Part shown: positions 2,015 through 12,308 of the stretch, piece after piece | Layout: each line of letters opens with the position of its first letter | How positions within the stretch are numbered: position 1 is the stretch's first letter | The notes under the pieces: generated by a model | What the model was told of the DNA's origin: nothing | The model's input: only the letters and a program-made list of their open reading frames with translations | The model's database searches: none | Virus record (IMG/VR): IMGVR_UViG_2540341016_000013 | Source of the DNA: a virus | Taxonomy: Duplodnaviria; Heunggongvirae; Uroviricota; Caudoviricetes | DNA: 26,426 bases | Reading direction: 5' to 3' (one strand) | Made by a program: the position numbers and the translations under genes

Positions 2015-2040
2015 GAGAGATAAACGTTGGTTTGGGGGAA
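2015..2040. other. Left recombination crossover site (hix/gix-like) of the invertible segment
   Basis: Reverse complement TTCCCCCAAACC-AA-CGTTTATCTCTC; the shared half TTCCCCCAAACC plus AA core resembles the hix/gix half-site (AAACC-AA-GG). Sits at the outer boundary of the left inverted repeat. Confidence 0.5.
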
Positions 2041-2226
2041 GGCTCTGCATTGCCTGTTGGTGTACCGGTTCCATGGCCCACCGCCACACCGCCAGCAGGC
2101 TGGTTAAAGTGCGACGGGCGCGCCTTTACAAAAGAACAATATCCTGTTCTGGCCAGAGTCTACCCGACCCTCCGTCTTCCCGATTTACGCGGTGAGTTTA
2201 TCCGTGGATGGGACGACGGGCGCAAA
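2027..2226. repeat. Left 200-bp inverted repeat of the invertible tail-fiber segment
   Basis: Identical by eye to the reverse complement of 3445-3644; encodes GEGSALPVGVPVPWPTATPPAGWLKCDGRAFTKEQYPVLARVYPTLRLPDLRGEFIRGWDDGRK in both copies. Confidence 0.85.
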
Positions 2227-2544
2227 GTTGATACAGGACGTAAGTTGCTGTCCGCACAAGGGGCAACGCTGTTAAGAACAGCAATGCTGGATTATTATAA
2301 CCAGGACACTACGGGAACCTCGGGGATAGTCGGCATGGGATTCAACAATGAAGATTCCATTACAGACCTTCGTGAGGGCAGCTTTAAAATGCCGGACGGG
2401 ACAACATTCAGCGATCCTGTCGTGGCAATGTCAGACAATGGTATGCAGGCTACTATTCTGACCTCTATCAGAAGCGGGTATGCGAAGGGTATCACTGTCA
2501 GACCCCGTAGCATTGCACTTAATTACATTGTGAGGGCAGTTTAA
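2032..2544 (+). CDS. Alternative tail-fiber C-terminal cassette (Sv-prime), promoterless in this orientation
   Basis: Frame opens inside the left IR with no genuine start (the listed M is TTG); after the shared IR-encoded region it diverges into a distinct C-terminal domain ending ...IALNYIVRAV; stop overlaps the tfa start (TAATG). Confidence 0.7.
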   Translation: MGEGSALPVGVPVPWPTATPPAGWLKCDGRAFTKEQYPVLARVYPTLRLPDLRGEFIRGWDDGRKVDTGRKLLSAQGATLLRTAMLDYYNQDTTGTSGIVGMGFNNEDSITDLREGSFKMPDGTTFSDPVVAMSDNGMQATILTSIRSGYAKGITVRPRSIALNYIVRAV

Positions 2545-3158
2545 TGAGTAACACTGCAGTTCTGGATGAAAACGGTATCGCCACTGTAGCGGGCGATATC
2601 ACTGTATATCACTATGACGAGGAAACCCGGGAATACACCTCATCCTCTGTGGAGTATCTCGCCCTTGGGGTGGGTACTCCGGCACATTCGTGCGCCGATG
2701 CACCGCCGGAGGCAATTTCGGGTTACGTGGTTTGCCGGACTGCCACGCTGAACGGGTGGGAGCATGTGCCTGATCACCGCGGCGAGACGGTATACAGCAC
2801 GGAGAACGGTAACCCTGTTCTGATTACCCAACCGGGTGATTACCCGGCGGACACCACCACAAAACAGCCAGCCACGCCATGGGATACCTGGAACGGTGAG
2901 GCGTGGGTAACCGATACTGAACGGCAGCGAGCCGCAGAACTGGAGGTTGCCAGACAGCAACGCCAGCAACGGGTGAAACAGGCGATGGCGTCAGTCGATC
3001 TTATCAACCTCAAACTGCGTGCTGGTCGCAGTCTGACACCAGAAGAAACGGCAAAACTGAACGCCGTGCTGGATTATATCGACGAGCTGAACGCACTGGA
3101 TATCAGCACGGCACCTGAAATCAGCTGGCCGGAAGCGCCACTGGCACTTGCCAGTTGA
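2544..3158 (+). CDS. Tail fiber assembly protein (Tfa/U-like chaperone)
   Basis: 204-aa ORF directly coupled to the Sv-prime cassette; N-terminal MSNTAVLDENGIATVAGDITVYHYDEETREYT resembles phage Tfa chaperones. Confidence 0.75.
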   Translation: MSNTAVLDENGIATVAGDITVYHYDEETREYTSSSVEYLALGVGTPAHSCADAPPEAISGYVVCRTATLNGWEHVPDHRGETVYSTENGNPVLITQPGDYPADTTTKQPATPWDTWNGEAWVTDTERQRAAELEVARQQRQQRVKQAMASVDLINLKLRAGRSLTPEETAKLNAVLDYIDELNALDISTAPEISWPEAPLALAS

Positions 3159-3164
3159 ACGGTA

Positions 3165-4456
3165 TCACGCCGCCCTCACGATATAGTTAAACGCGATATT
3201 GCGGGGGCGGGTTATGTTAAAGAATGCTCCGTTTAATTCGGCTTTTGCGCGACTGTTTGTTCCACCCAGAATTACGTACCACAAATAATCGCTACGGTAA
3301 TTCCCCGCAAACACCTTATCGCCGCCATAGTCAATATTATTTCCGTTACTCATGTACGAGATATCAAGCGAAGAATCGTTATCGTCATGACCGCCGACCA
3401 GTGTACCTTTCTGCCATGAAAGCAACTTACGCCCCTCGTCAATCTTGCGCCCGTCGTCCCATCCACGGATAAACTCACCGCGTAAATCGGGAAGACGGAG
3501 GGTCGGGTAGACTCTGGCCAGAACAGGATATTGTTCTTTTGTAAAGGCGCGCCCGTCGCACTTTAACCAGCCTGCTGGCGGTGTGGCGGTGGGCCATGGA
3601 ACCGGTACACCAACAGGCAATGCAGAGCCTTCCCCCAAACCAAGGTAATTGAGGACATCTTTTATACTGCCCTTAGCGATAATAGCGCGACCAATAGCTG
3701 TAAGGGTTGCCAGCGCTGCGCGGTCTGCTCCGGTAAAATAAGGCAACCGATCTGCTGCAGTGGCAAGTCCTGCCAGAGCAGTGAGCGTGGCATCTGCCGG
3801 TTGTTTTCCGTTTGCCAGATCGTATGCAGCCTTGACCGCTTTCGGTGTGGCGGCCAGTATTTCAGACGTGCTGTTGATGGCACTGCTCAGTTGTACGGTG
3901 CCTTTTGCCGTCAGCGAGGCAGCAGGCACTCCCGTTATCTGACTCCACGGGTGAGTGTGGCTGACGGGCGCCTTGCCGGCTGCAAGGTCGTATGCAGCCT
4001 TGACCGCCTTCGGCGTGGCAGCCTCAGTTTCTGATTGACTGTCCGTGGCGCTGCTCAGTTGTACGGTGCCTTTTGCCGTCAGTGAAGCCGCAGGCACTCC
4101 CGTTATCTGACTCCACGGGTGAGTGTGGCTGGCAGGCGCCTTGCCGGCTGCCAGGTCGTATGCAGCCTTGACCGCTTTTGGTGTGGCGGCCAGCGTTTCA
4201 GAGGTGCTGTTGGTGGCACTGCTCAGTTGGGTGAACCCCTTAGCTGTCAGTGTCGCGTCCGGGTGGTTACGGGAACGTACGTGTTCAGCCAGTGACTGTG
4301 CGGCTTCCTCCGTTTTCTTCTTCAGCCATTTCGTCCTGTTTGCCAGTTGCCGGGGGCTCGATTTGATATCCCGTCTGCACCACCCAGAACCGGATCTGAT
4401 GTCTCCAGTTGATAGATATTTTCTTCCCACTTTTCTGTTTCATTCAGGTTTCCCAT
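3165..4456 (-). CDS. Tail fiber protein (P2 gpH / Mu S-like), currently fused to the Sv cassette; apparently frameshifted near the N-terminus
   Basis: ORF 3165-4430 has P2 H-like shaft repeats and a C-terminus ...NIAFNYIVRAA. The only ATG with coupling to the upstream gene is at 4454-4456 (MGNLNETEKWEENIYQLETSDPVLGGADGISNRAP...), which is one frame off and joins the long frame at a 5-nt homopolymer (4352-4356). Confidence 0.8.
3445..3644. repeat. Right 200-bp inverted repeat of the invertible segment
   Basis: Reverse complement matches 2027-2226; lies inside the expressed tail fiber gene. Confidence 0.85.
3631..3656. other. Right recombination crossover site (hix/gix-like)
   Basis: TTCCCCCAAACC-AA-GGTAATTGAGGA; the AAACCAAGGT core matches the hix-type centre as I recall it; at the outer boundary of the right IR. 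Confidence 0.5.
3783..4247. repeat. About 2.8 tandem 168-bp (56-aa) repeats in the tail fiber shaft
   Basis: cgtatgcagccttgaccgc recurs at 3821, 3989 and 4157 (period 168); protein repeats TAKG(F/T)(T/V)QLSSA...AATPKAVKAAYDLAAGKAP(A/V)SHTHPWSQITGVPAASL. Confidence 0.8.
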
Positions 4457-4458
4457 AA

Positions 4459-5037
4459 TCAACTGCTCCCGTGGTTATAACTGCCATCATGGATGGCGGT
4501 ATTGTTATAGCGAATGGCCACAGACTGATACTCCAGGCTGGCCAGATGGCAGCGGGCCGGTGCAAATGCAGCCAGCGTCTGACGCAGCATCGCGGCCTGA
4601 TCGTTAGTAATGGGCTGTTTCAGAATAACGCGATAAACTGCCCAGGCGGCTGCATCTCCATGAACAAACAGTCCGTTATAGCTGCGATTGCCGTCGTAAC
4701 TGAGACGACCTGTGCCTTCAATCAGATCCACTTCACCAAAGCCAAAACGGCGGATAACTTCCCGGATTGACCACGGCGTCCCTTTATACCGGTGCAGTTC
4801 GATGGCTGCTTTTATAAGCATGCGGCGAACATCGTCCGATTCCGCCAGCTCCCAGCCATCGCCAGACAGTGAGAACTGCTCGCCCAGCCATGGCAGCGCG
4901 GAACTGTCGACGATATCGACGAGAAAGACCATCAGTACGCTCAGGTCGATGTTATCCAGCCGTCCTGCCAGTCTTCCCAGCGTCCTGAGACTGATATCAC
5001 CCTCAAGCGGTGGCGGGAGTTGTAATGGCTCAGTCAT
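4459..5037 (-). CDS. Baseplate/tail protein I-like (P2 gpI family)
   Basis: 192 aa, position between the J-like and fiber genes; N-terminal MTEPLQLPPPLEGDISLRTL pattern fits gpI. Confidence 0.75.
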   Translation of the reverse strand: MTEPLQLPPPLEGDISLRTLGRLAGRLDNIDLSVLMVFLVDIVDSSALPWLGEQFSLSGDGWELAESDDVRRMLIKAAIELHRYKGTPWSIREVIRRFGFGEVDLIEGTGRLSYDGNRSYNGLFVHGDAAAWAVYRVILKQPITNDQAAMLRQTLAAFAPARCHLASLEYQSVAIRYNNTAIHDGSYNHGSS

Positions 5038-8476: not shown

Positions 8477-9357
8477 ACACTCCTCGTCAGTATTCTGGCG
8501 GCCATTGCACTTAATCCCGGAGACATGCGGTTGAATGCTGTTCCGACGGCGTTAAGCTGCCCGGAAACGGTATCCAGAGCACCTGCAATATTTCTTTTGT
8601 CCACACCACTCAGCGCAGACTGTGCCTGCTGTACATACGTGGCTGCTTCGCTGGCTGTTCTGGCCAGACTGATGGCATCGGGCATGGATTCAGAGAGTGC
8701 GTTAAACGCCGGAACACTTTTCCCCAGAGCCCCGGAGATATTACCCAGTCCGCTCATCAGCCCCGGCACACGGGTCAGTGCGACAACGGGGTTATCCTTC
8801 ATTTTCTGTGTCACCCGAACGGCGCTGATAGTGGTCTGGAGTACAGACTGCGCCTGTTTCGCATAGTTGACGCCGTTGCGGATGAACTGCGCCACCCCGG
8901 AAGGTGAAGGAATGGCACCGGAGACCGCCCCGACACCCGGGAGCTTCGTGCGTATTGCCGGTGGTTGCAGAGGATTTTTCGGGTCACCGGTGTATTCCCG
9001 GAGAGACACGGTGGCACTGACAGCCAGCACGTTGCCGATACTGTCAGTCTGCTCGCTGGTTGCAGTCACATCGGTAATCACGAACCAGCCGCGATAGTCA
9101 CCGTTGCCGAAGACCAGCGCCAGTGCCTGATGGGCTTTCATGGCTGTTCGCAGTCTCGCCAGCTCCACATCGGGTACACAATAATGCTGATGGAAAACCA
9201 GAGTTATCTGGATTTCGTCCAGCCTGTCGCCGACGAACTGCAGGCCAGGCTTACCCCCGATGCGGGCATGCTCCGCATAATCGACGCCGAACGTGGCCTC
9301 GAAGCCGTCCCAGTAGGTAATCAGCTCAAACTCAATATCACCCAGTACGGCAAACAT
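8473..9357 (-). CDS. Tail protein downstream of tape measure (gpU-like / DNA-circulation N-domain-like)
   Basis: 294 aa; start overlaps the tape measure stop; assignment by position and N-terminal MFAVLGDIEFEL pattern. Confidence 0.6.
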   Translation of the reverse strand: MFAVLGDIEFELITYWDGFEATFGVDYAEHARIGGKPGLQFVGDRLDEIQITLVFHQHYCVPDVELARLRTAMKAHQALALVFGNGDYRGWFVITDVTATSEQTDSIGNVLAVSATVSLREYTGDPKNPLQPPAIRTKLPGVGAVSGAIPSPSGVAQFIRNGVNYAKQAQSVLQTTISAVRVTQKMKDNPVVALTRVPGLMSGLGNISGALGKSVPAFNALSESMPDAISLARTASEAATYVQQAQSALSGVDKRNIAGALDTVSGQLNAVGTAFNRMSPGLSAMAARILTRSV

Positions 9358-12308
9358 CAGCGGTACTCCTTACGTTGTTTCTGAGCAAGCAGACGCTCCA
9401 GCATTTTTTCCAGCTCATGCAGACTCATATTCAGGGCCCCAGTCAGTCCTGCAGGCGCTGTGGTTTCCCTGCCATTGAGGAAAAACTGAGGATTAAAGCT
9501 GACCTGGATACCACCAGACGTTCCACCGCCGGTTGCAGCTGCACCACGGCCTGAATATCCGGCAGCCAGGATTTCAGGCGAGGGGATACGGGGAACATCC
9601 GGTGTCATCTCATTTGCCAGACGTTGCCCTGGTAAAATCGATGCCCGGGTGGAGAGCGGAATAGCGGGCATGGAAGACAAACTATTGATTACGGCTCCGA
9701 TCGCATTTTTAGCAGACGACATAAACCCATTGATATCGGGCAACGGCATACTGAAGCGAACACCTGAAGTGTTATCCCGTATTTCTGGCCCCTGAATGCT
9801 CACGGGCATTTTGGGGAGCAGTTCACTGGCCATTCGCTGCCCGGCCAGAGCTGCAAGCGGAGTGGTCCGCTGCAGGCCAATGGCGGCCCCCTGCGCGATA
9901 TTGTCACCAAAGCCCATAAACACGCGGCTCGGCGAATGAATGCCCAGCTTTTCGCTGAACCAGCCACTGATGCTGTCGCCCATTCCGGTTACACTGGATT
10001 TGAGCGACTCCCATTTGTTTTTGATACCGTTAATCAGACCATCGACAAGATGGCCACCGAAGTCGGTAAACTTTGCCGGCAGATCAACACCAAGATATTT
10101 CAGCGCAGCTGCAAAGGCTTTATAGAGCAGACCTGCCGGCGACCAGTTAATCAGCAGCTTACCAGTTCCCGCGATACCGCCGTTAAAGGCTTCCTGAATG
10201 TCAGCCCAGCACTGTTTAAACCAGCTACTGATGCTGTCACCCATTCCGGTTACACTGGATTTGAGCGACCCCCATTTGTTTTTGATACCGTTAATCAGAC
10301 CGTCGATAAGATGGCCACCGAAGTCGGTGAACTTTGCCGGCAGAGTAACGCCGAAATATTTCAGCGCAGCCGCAAAGGCTTTATAGAGCAGGCCTGCCGG
10401 CGACCAGTTAATCAGCAACTTACCAGTTCCCACAATGCCGCCGTTAAAGGCTTCCTGAATGTCAGCCCAGCGCTGTTTAAACCAACCACTGACAGCCCCC
10501 CAGTTGCGGTAGATAAGGTAAGCTGCTGCCGCGACAGCGGTGATAACGAGACCGATGGGATTCATCATCAGCGCTCGCCCAATCCAGAGAACGGCACGTG
10601 CAGCGCTCATAAAACCGCGAACGAGGCTGCCCGCCAGAACTTTGCTGAGTTTCAGTCCTCCGCTGGTCAGTCGGCTGAATCCAGTGACAAGCCAGCGTAA
10701 TTTGCCACCTTCTCCGAGTGCGGTAGTCAGTCGATGCCAGTTGGTCCGGAGTAAAACAGCATTTTTCCAGACACTTACAAAGGGGGAAATAAGGAGATTC
10801 AGCCCCAGTTTGAGACCAACAGTCGCTATCTTAATCGCAAGGAGCGCACTGATGAGCTTAAAAGCCCCACTGACAAATTGCGGGTGAGTCGCTACCCAGT
10901 GTTTTGCCCCCTGAATGAGTGGAAGCAGTTCCTGAGTCAAAGAAATAAAAGATGGAGCTAATTGATCGCCCAGCGTAATTGCCAGATCGCGACTGCTGAC
11001 CATAAGTGTTTTAGTGGCTTCAAGGGGGGATTTCAGTCGCTGATCGTAAGCACTGGCAAGCAAATCGTTATCCGCAGCCCTGAGAGCACCGGCACGGATC
11101 TCTCGATATCTGTCCATGTTGGCCAGCATCGGGCGGATAAATGCCATGACCTGCATATCCGCGAACATATCACCCAGACCAAAGTTTTTCGCCAGAGCCT
11201 GAAGTGCCTCATCTCTTGCCGTATCATTCTTTATTTTCATGGCGGATTTGAAGCCGGCCAGCGCTTCGGGGCTTTTGGCATTGAGGTAACGTTCTATAAC
11301 ACTCAACATCCCTTCAATCGGAGAGATCCCCGCAGCCTTATAACTCGCAATAGATCCCTGCAAATCAATACCCAGATCAGCAAACTGTTTCTGAGTATCG
11401 CGGGCAAAAATTTTGGTAAGAAAGTTTTTAAAATTATTGGCTGCTTCGTCGGTGGAACCTGCACCGATTTTTGCTATCTGGAGACTGGCCCCGATTTCAG
11501 CAACAGCCTCTTTTCCACTGGCAATACCCGCCATCATTGGGGCCAGGGACTGCATCCACTTGACCTGATCCGGGATTTCAAATGACCCCTGGTCACCGGC
11601 ATAAGCCATAATATTCTGAACGGCACCAAAATCTCTGGCCGCACCTTTCAGGGAGTTTTGCCAGACTGCGGCCACTTTTGCCCAGTCCTGAGCAGACGTG
11701 CGTGTTGCCGTTGCCGCGCGGGCAATATCCGGCATCAGAAAACCGATATCTGACACATTATCAATATTGTCGCTGATGAGTGAACCCACCGCCTCCTGCA
11801 GCTCATCCTGATACTGATTGTATTTAAGCGCCCAGCCTTTTATCTGTCCGGCAAGTGCATCCCGCGTTTTATTGTCATATTTTGCGGTGATCGACATATC
11901 AATCATTTTGTCCTGAAAAGACATGGACTGCTGAACGGCAGGGGAAACCGTATGATAAACAGTCTGTGCCATGCCATACGCTTCAATCCCCTGACCATAC
12001 AGCGCCATGCGGTTAGCTTTCAGCGCATCACTGGTAGCGGATGCCGCTGACAGACGGCGCTGCTGGCGCTCAATTTGCTCCATGGTGCGGCTTACCCGCA
12101 GCAGCTCGCTGTTGAGATGCTGCATCCGGGAAGAACCCAGTTGACCATAACGTTCTGTTGCACGGGTTAAAGCGTTCTGACGTTCCTGCAGGCGGCGTGA
12201 GGTATCGCTCAGGGAATCAAGCGCACGGCGGGTACCGCTCATTGCAGAACGGAATGTGCTGCCAATCATCCCGCCGATAACAACGCCGACTGAAAACTGT
12301 CCCGACAT
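9357..12308 (-). CDS. Tail tape measure protein
   Basis: 983 aa, Ala/Gly-rich with hydrophobic segments and predicted coiled-coil N-terminus; GGAGG SD upstream of the ATG at 12306-12308; follows the chaperone genes. Confidence 0.85.
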   Translation of the reverse strand: MSGQFSVGVVIGGMIGSTFRSAMSGTRRALDSLSDTSRRLQERQNALTRATERYGQLGSSRMQHLNSELLRVSRTMEQIERQQRRLSAASATSDALKANRMALYGQGIEAYGMAQTVYHTVSPAVQQSMSFQDKMIDMSITAKYDNKTRDALAGQIKGWALKYNQYQDELQEAVGSLISDNIDNVSDIGFLMPDIARAATATRTSAQDWAKVAAVWQNSLKGAARDFGAVQNIMAYAGDQGSFEIPDQVKWMQSLAPMMAGIASGKEAVAEIGASLQIAKIGAGSTDEAANNFKNFLTKIFARDTQKQFADLGIDLQGSIASYKAAGISPIEGMLSVIERYLNAKSPEALAGFKSAMKIKNDTARDEALQALAKNFGLGDMFADMQVMAFIRPMLANMDRYREIRAGALRAADNDLLASAYDQRLKSPLEATKTLMVSSRDLAITLGDQLAPSFISLTQELLPLIQGAKHWVATHPQFVSGAFKLISALLAIKIATVGLKLGLNLLISPFVSVWKNAVLLRTNWHRLTTALGEGGKLRWLVTGFSRLTSGGLKLSKVLAGSLVRGFMSAARAVLWIGRALMMNPIGLVITAVAAAAYLIYRNWGAVSGWFKQRWADIQEAFNGGIVGTGKLLINWSPAGLLYKAFAAALKYFGVTLPAKFTDFGGHLIDGLINGIKNKWGSLKSSVTGMGDSISSWFKQCWADIQEAFNGGIAGTGKLLINWSPAGLLYKAFAAALKYLGVDLPAKFTDFGGHLVDGLINGIKNKWESLKSSVTGMGDSISGWFSEKLGIHSPSRVFMGFGDNIAQGAAIGLQRTTPLAALAGQRMASELLPKMPVSIQGPEIRDNTSGVRFSMPLPDINGFMSSAKNAIGAVINSLSSMPAIPLSTRASILPGQRLANEMTPDVPRIPSPEILAAGYSGRGAAATGGGTSGGIQVSFNPQFFLNGRETTAPAGLTGALNMSLHELEKMLERLLAQKQRKEYR
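9958..10497. repeat. In-frame tandem duplication (2 copies of 261 bp plus a partial third) inside the tape measure gene
   Basis: cattccggtt recurs at 9981 and 10242 (offset 261 = 87 codons); protein units WFKQ(R/C)WADIQEAFNGGI(V/A)GTGKLLINWSPAGLLYKAFAAALKY... repeated; 57/60 identity over the one 60-nt stretch I compared. Confidence 0.85.

Follow-up and report, generated by a model that had tools for sequence, protein, structure and literature searches.

A probable one-base deletion at a short cytosine run breaks the tail fibre gene of a BcepMu-like prophage in an Escherichia coli clone

Introduction

In BcepMu-like phages the tail fibre gene follows two baseplate genes, in the order gpJ, gpI, fibre, and the fibre start codon lies within a few nucleotides of the gpI stop. 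The fibres of this group (among them BcepMu gp52, phiE255 gp26 and the PhiKM protein named 'GpH') have in common an N-terminal module of about 45 residues, with 37–52% identity over the aligned N-terminal regions. In the Mu G segment, the P1 C segment and the e14 P segment, an invertase (Gin, Cin and Pin) is accompanied by inverted repeats and alternative fibre C-termini. In the contingency loci of Neisseria, Haemophilus and Campylobacter, a C or G run near the 5′ end of a gene for a surface structure sets the reading frame. Recognised phase-variable mononucleotide tracts are typically 7–8 or more bases long.

The stretch of DNA analysed here (the window, 26,426 nt) is contig APXY01000213.1 of the E. 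coli assembly GCA_000357565.2. It carries a prophage that resembles each of these systems in part: the gpJ–gpI–fibre order with a fibre start codon next to the gpI stop, an invertase with inverted repeats and alternative fibre C-termini, and a C run near the 5′ end of the fibre gene. The original prediction, made from the letters of the window alone, was that the fibre gene is split between two frames at this run and would be rejoined if C5 were C6. It offered three causes: a sequencing error, an inactivating mutation, or on/off switching of the fibre by slippage. Here we compare the run and its surroundings with related prophages, with distant phages and with assemblies of the same clone, and find that a genuine inactivating deletion is the most likely cause.

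Results

The features of the locus are collected in Table 1. The fibre ATG (4456–4454) has GGGAG 9 nt upstream and is separated by 2 nt from the TGA (4461–4459) that ends the gpI-like gene. Translation from this ATG gives MGNLNETEKWEENIYQLETSDPVLGGADGISNRAPGNWQTGRNG before the stop codon at 4324–4322. The long fibre frame extends without interruption from the GTG at position 4430 down to its stop at 3165 and reads VGRKYLSTGDIRSGSGWCRRDIKSSPRQLANRTKWLKK...; its N-terminal part, VGRKYLSTGDIRSGSGWCRRDIKSSP, is followed by RQLANRTKWLKK.... This GTG, the sole upstream start in that frame, has no Shine–Dalgarno sequence, and the stretch from the GTG to the run is out-of-frame and has no similarity to fibres. 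When one C is added to the run the reading becomes ...ISNRAPRQLANRTKWLKK..., which is the exact protein of relatives with C6 (E. coli EC958 and contig L035, from GCA_049980085.1), and a fibre of 430 aa is then encoded at 3165–4456 on the minus strand. The gene has Pfam matches to Phage_fiber_2 (three units, 5e-56) and Collar (3e-15) and is encoded directly after the gpJ–gpI baseplate genes, as is expected of a BcepMu-like/P2-type (gpH-like) tail fibre. The positions originally given for the gene, the ATG, the stub stop, the GTG and the run all proved correct, and the reading of a single fibre gene in two frames, rejoined by C6, is borne out by the identity of the repaired protein with that of the C6 relatives. 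Within the fibre gene, internal direct repeats of ~250 bp with ~85% identity (window 3813–4229) correspond to the three Phage_fiber_2 units, and are a likely cause of short-read contig breaks.

Table 1. Features around the tail fibre gene (window coordinates).
Feature	Coordinates	Strand	Remarks
Host rihA, 5′ part missing	541–1290	−	Similarity to related prophages from about 1310; IS1 further left
Gin/Pin/Hin-type serine recombinase (invertase)	1388–1960	−	Resolvase + HTH_7, 190 aa
Invertible segment, 1,620 bp	2024–3643	.	Inverted-repeat arms 2024–2249 and 3418–3643; includes the C-terminal ~150 codons of the fibre
Alternative C-terminal cassette, in invertible segment	2032–2544	+	
Tail fibre assembly gene, in invertible segment	2544–3158	+	
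Whole tail fibre gene, probable frameshifted pseudogene	3165–4456	−	Conserved N-terminal module, three Phage_fiber_2 repeats, Collar domain
Rest of fibre, −1 frame	3165–4351	−	RQLANRTKWLKK... to NYIVRAA and stop; no start of its own at the right place
44-codon stub ORF	4322–4456	−	True fibre ATG; residues 1–35 fibre, 36–44 (GNWQTGRNG) out-of-frame, TGA
C5 run (G5 on plus)	4352–4356	−	Site of 1-bp deletion relative to C6 of relatives
gpI-like baseplate/tail protein gene, upstream	4459–5037	−	Pfam Tail_P2_I (PF09684)

The fibre is uninterrupted, as one continuous ORF, in EC958, in L035 and in phage PhiKM. The same prophage is present in EC958 at >99% identity; there the run is C6, and a 443-aa ORF continues unbroken from the equivalent ATG. 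The longer run is likewise found in PhiKM, a phage deposited under Bcepmuvirus, in which the annotated 'GpH' fibre begins at that ATG. The repaired first 68 residues were then used as a tblastn query against a database of 50,697 phage records. Matches were obtained in 41 records, 39 of them below 60% identity, and among the alignments listed these are single unbroken pieces, mostly from residue 1, that extend past residue 36 and so cross the 35/36 junction. Distant fibre matches included BcepMu gp52, phiE255, Klebsiella KP12, Pasteurella AFS-2018a, Enterobacter Mulvp2 and Ralstonia RsoM2USA. In all six phage records examined, the aligned Met is precisely the first residue of the annotated fibre CDS, and in four of these six the previous CDS ends no more than 3 nt from the fibre start. 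Invariant columns are found both before the junction (M1, L4, E6, W10, E11, V23, G25, G26, G29 and N32) and after it (Q37, L38, R41 and L45). Several PHROG tail-fibre families match the repaired protein at residues 1–68, 1–61 or 1–57; PHROG matches to the stub as encoded end at residue 33–35, which is the position of the run. A junction-spanning match of this kind can hardly be due to chance.

Among the relatives and distant phages aligned, no homologue starts at the position of GTG 4430. Alignment of the N-terminus across the junction, one of the checks proposed with the original prediction, thus finds homologues that span the junction from the same Met, and the view that the GTG is not the genuine start is upheld, given its missing Shine–Dalgarno sequence and the upstream start of the homologues. 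Fibres that began at the GTG and bore no likeness to the 44-aa frame, which would have counted against a split gene, were not found in this set. The pattern is that of a frameshifted pseudogene: a continuous ORF in homologues, similarity of the upstream ORF that ends at the shift, and a downstream frame without its own start.

The length of the run in other genomes was determined with a 91-bp query centred on it, which was searched against the complete RefSeq E. coli genomes; 589 of these carry the stretch. An exact C5 match was found in a single one, Ec-23, and the others listed span 92 bp, corresponding to C6, which places C6 in about 588 of the 589. In IMG/VR, the C5 41-mer was on no contig and the C6 version was on 16, and the C5 40-mer was absent from all GTDB species representatives. 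On these counts C6 is evidently the normal and ancestral state of the run, and the comparison of run length in related prophages, also proposed at the outset, comes out as C6.

The one exceptional complete genome, Ec-23 (NZ_CM192150.1, 6281–6320), is an otherwise clean ST131 chromosome in which C5 is the sole difference from EC958 in the constant region. It is the only 100% match over 501 bp of the window, and it differs from the window by 43 mismatches over 7.2 kb and in its insertion site. Its C5 may have arisen as a separate, genuine deletion, or may be an error left over from long-read sequencing.

The exact 44-aa stub is recorded on at least 265 contigs, and a variant stub, N13K, on 18 others. 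Eight of the ten long stub-bearing contigs returned (L004, L005 and L007–L012; GenBank, >1 Mb) are noisy assemblies, with 13–35 indel events per ~7–11 kb relative to the window and with aroA, serC, the resolvase, gpJ and the tape measure gene all split. Judged by sequence comparison, C5 in these contigs is one of many homopolymer miscalls; in error-prone long-read assemblies of E. coli, such miscalls recur at this run. Contigs L006 and L013 have other single-base indels nearby besides C5; in L013 (CP165028.1) the fibre gene has a second 1-nt deletion (GAAGAAGAAAAC to GAAGAAAAAAC), ~40 nt downstream from its C5.

The state of the run within the clone was read from sister assemblies. Four further assemblies with the same rihA insertion (AQET01, APZO01, APXW01 and APXX01) all have C5, and the five C5 assemblies, including that of the window, are identical or one SNP apart in the constant region. 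L035 (JAAPLS01), the product of another project, shares the rihA insertion, has C6 and an intact 443-aa fibre, and is identical to the window over 3,647 + 1,553 bases (5.2 kb) except for C6. Against AZ184, the closest full-length relative, the window shows 92 substitutions and one indel, the run itself, in 25,032 bases. This aligned stretch contains 92 homopolymers of 5 or more bases, of which 91 agree in length. GenBank gives 'E. coli P0298942.1' as the origin in the name of the stub. This naming matches the scheme of a study in which several ETEC colonies per patient in Dhaka were sequenced by Illumina HiSeq2000 at >200x and assembled with the Celera Assembler (PMC4462620), so that the window probably comes from that study, its accession probably belongs there, and its host is probably an ETEC clone.

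The C-terminal part of the fibre gene lies within the invertible segment. The two arms of its inverted repeat are 226 bp long and about 96.5% identical (BLAST), with identity between the arms beginning at TTGGTTTGGGGGAAGG. The components are those of a Gin/Pin/Cin/Hin inversion system, namely a small serine recombinase with a C-terminal HTH, inverted repeats, and both orientations. L031, L032 (an exact substring of the window) and L033 have the segment in one orientation and L034 and L035 in the other; Ec-23 and EC958 also differ in orientation, and several assemblies (L036–L039) break at the segment. The occurrence of both orientations in sisters of the same clone, together with these assembly breaks, indicates that the invertase is active despite the broken fibre gene. 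The inversion system is unrelated to the frameshift itself. A single tail fibre assembly (Caudo_TAP) gene is present for the two C-terminal cassettes, and in the orientation of the window the gene that comes after the expressed cassette (3165–3643) is this assembly gene, encoded on the other strand, which leaves the cassette without a co-oriented chaperone gene. The ST131 copies (EC958 and Ec-23) contain one extra C-terminal cassette.

In ST131 the same prophage is a neighbour of serC-aroA, and L006, L008, L013 and L051 carry it elsewhere; such varied insertion sites fit a transposable, BcepMu-like phage. The remaining late genes of the window are all of full length, encoding the tape measure protein (983 aa), sheath (475 aa), gpD (384 aa), gpJ (367 aa) and portal (498 aa), and an ORF of terminase size (531 aa) is also full length.

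The existing annotation of this region is uneven. RefSeq splits the fibre gene into 'incomplete' fragments despite an intact 443-aa ORF (EC958, contig L002, 6189–7526; AZ184, contig L003), and most complete genomes have no annotated feature at the fibre N-terminus, where the 91-bp match lies. The 310-aa downstream fragment was considered as a marker of split genes, and it is not exclusive to them: contig L050 has C6 and yet the same gene call. The AZ184 tape measure gene (L003, 11526–14000) is annotated as a pseudogene with its C-terminus missing, and has no indel relative to window 9357–12308, where the ORF is complete (983 aa); the pseudogene call presumably reflects a substitution or an annotation quirk.

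Discussion

These observations are best explained by the loss of one base from the run (C6 to C5) within the tail fibre gene of a transposable prophage that is BcepMu-like. That the change is a genuine, recent 1-bp deletion which inactivates the fibre and has been inherited clonally is probable on the sequence data, and is favoured because C5 is found in five separately assembled sisters and the 25 kb compared contain no further indel. The deletion would most likely have arisen by replication slippage in the short run, recently and in one E. coli clone, probably ETEC, and would then have been inherited by all sampled colonies. A young lesion is also suggested by the intact state of the rest of the late region and by an invertase that still flips the C-terminal cassette of the fibre. 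Translation from the true ATG would leave the frame after Pro35 and stop nine codons later, and the remaining 395 codons would be left without a proper start; with the stub ending early and the remainder startless, no full-length fibre with the conserved N-terminal module should be made. Reinitiation after the stub stop was considered as a way around this and rejected: a nearby ATG (4329–4327) is in the third frame, and the next in-frame start used by gene callers is GTG 4097, whose product would lack the N-terminal module. The predicted outcome is loss of fibre function. The N-terminal module is common to fibres and tailspikes with otherwise different bodies, as expected of a part that docks on the baseplate, and it may well be the module that attaches the fibre there; no solved structure matched it at E ≤ 1. 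Particles of the C5 prophage would thus be expected to be fibreless and non-infectious.

The most serious competitor to a real deletion is an error of assembly, in which the isolate has C6 and one C was dropped in the assembler consensus. Homopolymer undercalls are common, and this run is prone to them on other platforms, as the long-read C5 calls attest: C5 is miscalled in the eight noisy long contigs, and L006 and L013 carry further single-base indels nearby. In addition, the sole assembly of the same lineage from another project, L035, has C6 while being otherwise identical, and all five C5 assemblies come from one pipeline, leaving room for a systematic error specific to the site. Against this, the window has no other indel over 25 kb and the 91 other runs are right; five isolates, sequenced and assembled separately, agree on C5; and Illumina sequencing at >200x, the probable platform if the window does belong to the Dhaka study, would be very unlikely to leave an indel in the consensus of a 6-base run. 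We therefore regard a dropped base as unlikely, with a small but real share of the probability. Of the three causes first proposed, the inactivating mutation is the one favoured, and on/off switching is left unsupported.

Switching of that kind would make the run a contingency locus, slipping reversibly to turn the fibre on and off. The lesion does lie at a homopolymer and a +1 slip could in principle undo it, one lineage contains both run lengths without any further difference (L035), C5 is present in the otherwise clean ST131 genome Ec-23, and the N13K form of the stub is found on 18 other contigs. The tract is nevertheless nearly invariant, with C6 in about 588 of 589 complete genomes and in all 16 viral contigs, the clone is uniformly C5 in the five sister assemblies that include the site, and a run of 5–6 bases is well under the length of recognised phase-variable tracts; the prophage, moreover, already has a dedicated and visibly active fibre switch in its invertase system. 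The run is neither polymorphic among relatives or in the clone nor long (5 bases here, 6 in relatives), and reversible control by it seems very improbable. The same low standing is given to a more elaborate version, a low-rate reversible C5/C6 switch, possibly with leaky −1 tRNA-Pro slippage on C_CCC_C, superimposed on host-range switching by the invertase; if it were true, the lysogen would retain a prophage that yields mostly fibreless particles, infectious on occasion. Recurrence is compatible with the two run lengths in otherwise identical copies of one lineage, with C5 in Ec-23 and with the variant stub. Slightly less probable again is recoding, in which a −1 slip on C_CCC_C (tRNA-Pro leaving its CCC for the CCC that overlaps it) or RNA polymerase stutter would yield useful amounts of full-length fibre. 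A −1 P-site slip on the run does restore the exact wild-type ...RAPRQLANRT..., and a low-level leak is chemically plausible. The site, however, is G_CCC_CCG_G with 0-frame codons GCC CCC GGC and contains no X_XXY_YYZ heptamer, no significant fold is predicted for the 90 nt downstream (z = +0.85; 159 of 200 shuffles fold as well), and the relatives examined, near-identical prophages and distant phages alike, encode the fibre N-terminus in a single frame, which argues that there is no conserved recoding signal. Trace slippage that recreates the wild-type protein may occur, and nothing suggests that it has been selected. The proposal that deserves least credence is that of two genes, a 44-aa protein and a fibre starting at GTG 4430. 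It agrees with GenBank gene callers, which annotate 44 aa and 310 aa, or 421 aa from the GTG, and is refuted by the alignments: the homologues all start at the upstream Met and read through, none starts at the GTG, which lacks a Shine–Dalgarno sequence, and the stretch from there to the run has no similarity to fibres.

The lesion is most likely ordinary prophage decay, a known kind of event, and its practical consequences lie mainly in annotation. GenBank already lists the 44-aa stub as a hypothetical protein, with accessions that belong to a 2013-era batch; this 'hypothetical protein' and the 'phage tail protein' annotated with a truncated N-terminus should be joined as one pseudogene. The run can be used as a quick quality flag for long-read E. 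coli assemblies, and annotation pipelines cope poorly with the invertible fibre gene, intact copies included. If the deletion is real, the Mu-like prophage of the ETEC clone should release non-adsorbing particles, a point relevant only to studies of induction or transduction in that lineage.

Among known systems, the prophage is closest to the BcepMu-like phages, and the DNA of PhiKM is 99.4% identical to it. Unlike the fibre genes of that group, the gene in the window is interrupted by a probable 1-bp deletion. Its C-terminal part is an invertible cassette. The prophages of the ST131 strains EC958 and JJ1886, and of many other E. coli, have >99% DNA identity in the tail region and an identical fibre N-terminus; these ST131 copies differ in having C6 and an intact 443-aa ORF, in lying beside serC-aroA instead of rihA, and in the additional cassette. 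The resemblance to the contingency loci of Neisseria, Haemophilus and Campylobacter ends with the position of the run: in contrast to those loci, it is 5–6 bases long, nearly fixed in length over hundreds of genomes and uniform in the clone, and no evidence of switching was found at the C run of the window. The likeness to the Mu G, P1 C and e14 P segments extends to the invertase, the inverted repeats and the alternative fibre C-termini; unlike those segments, the window has one assembly gene for its two cassettes.
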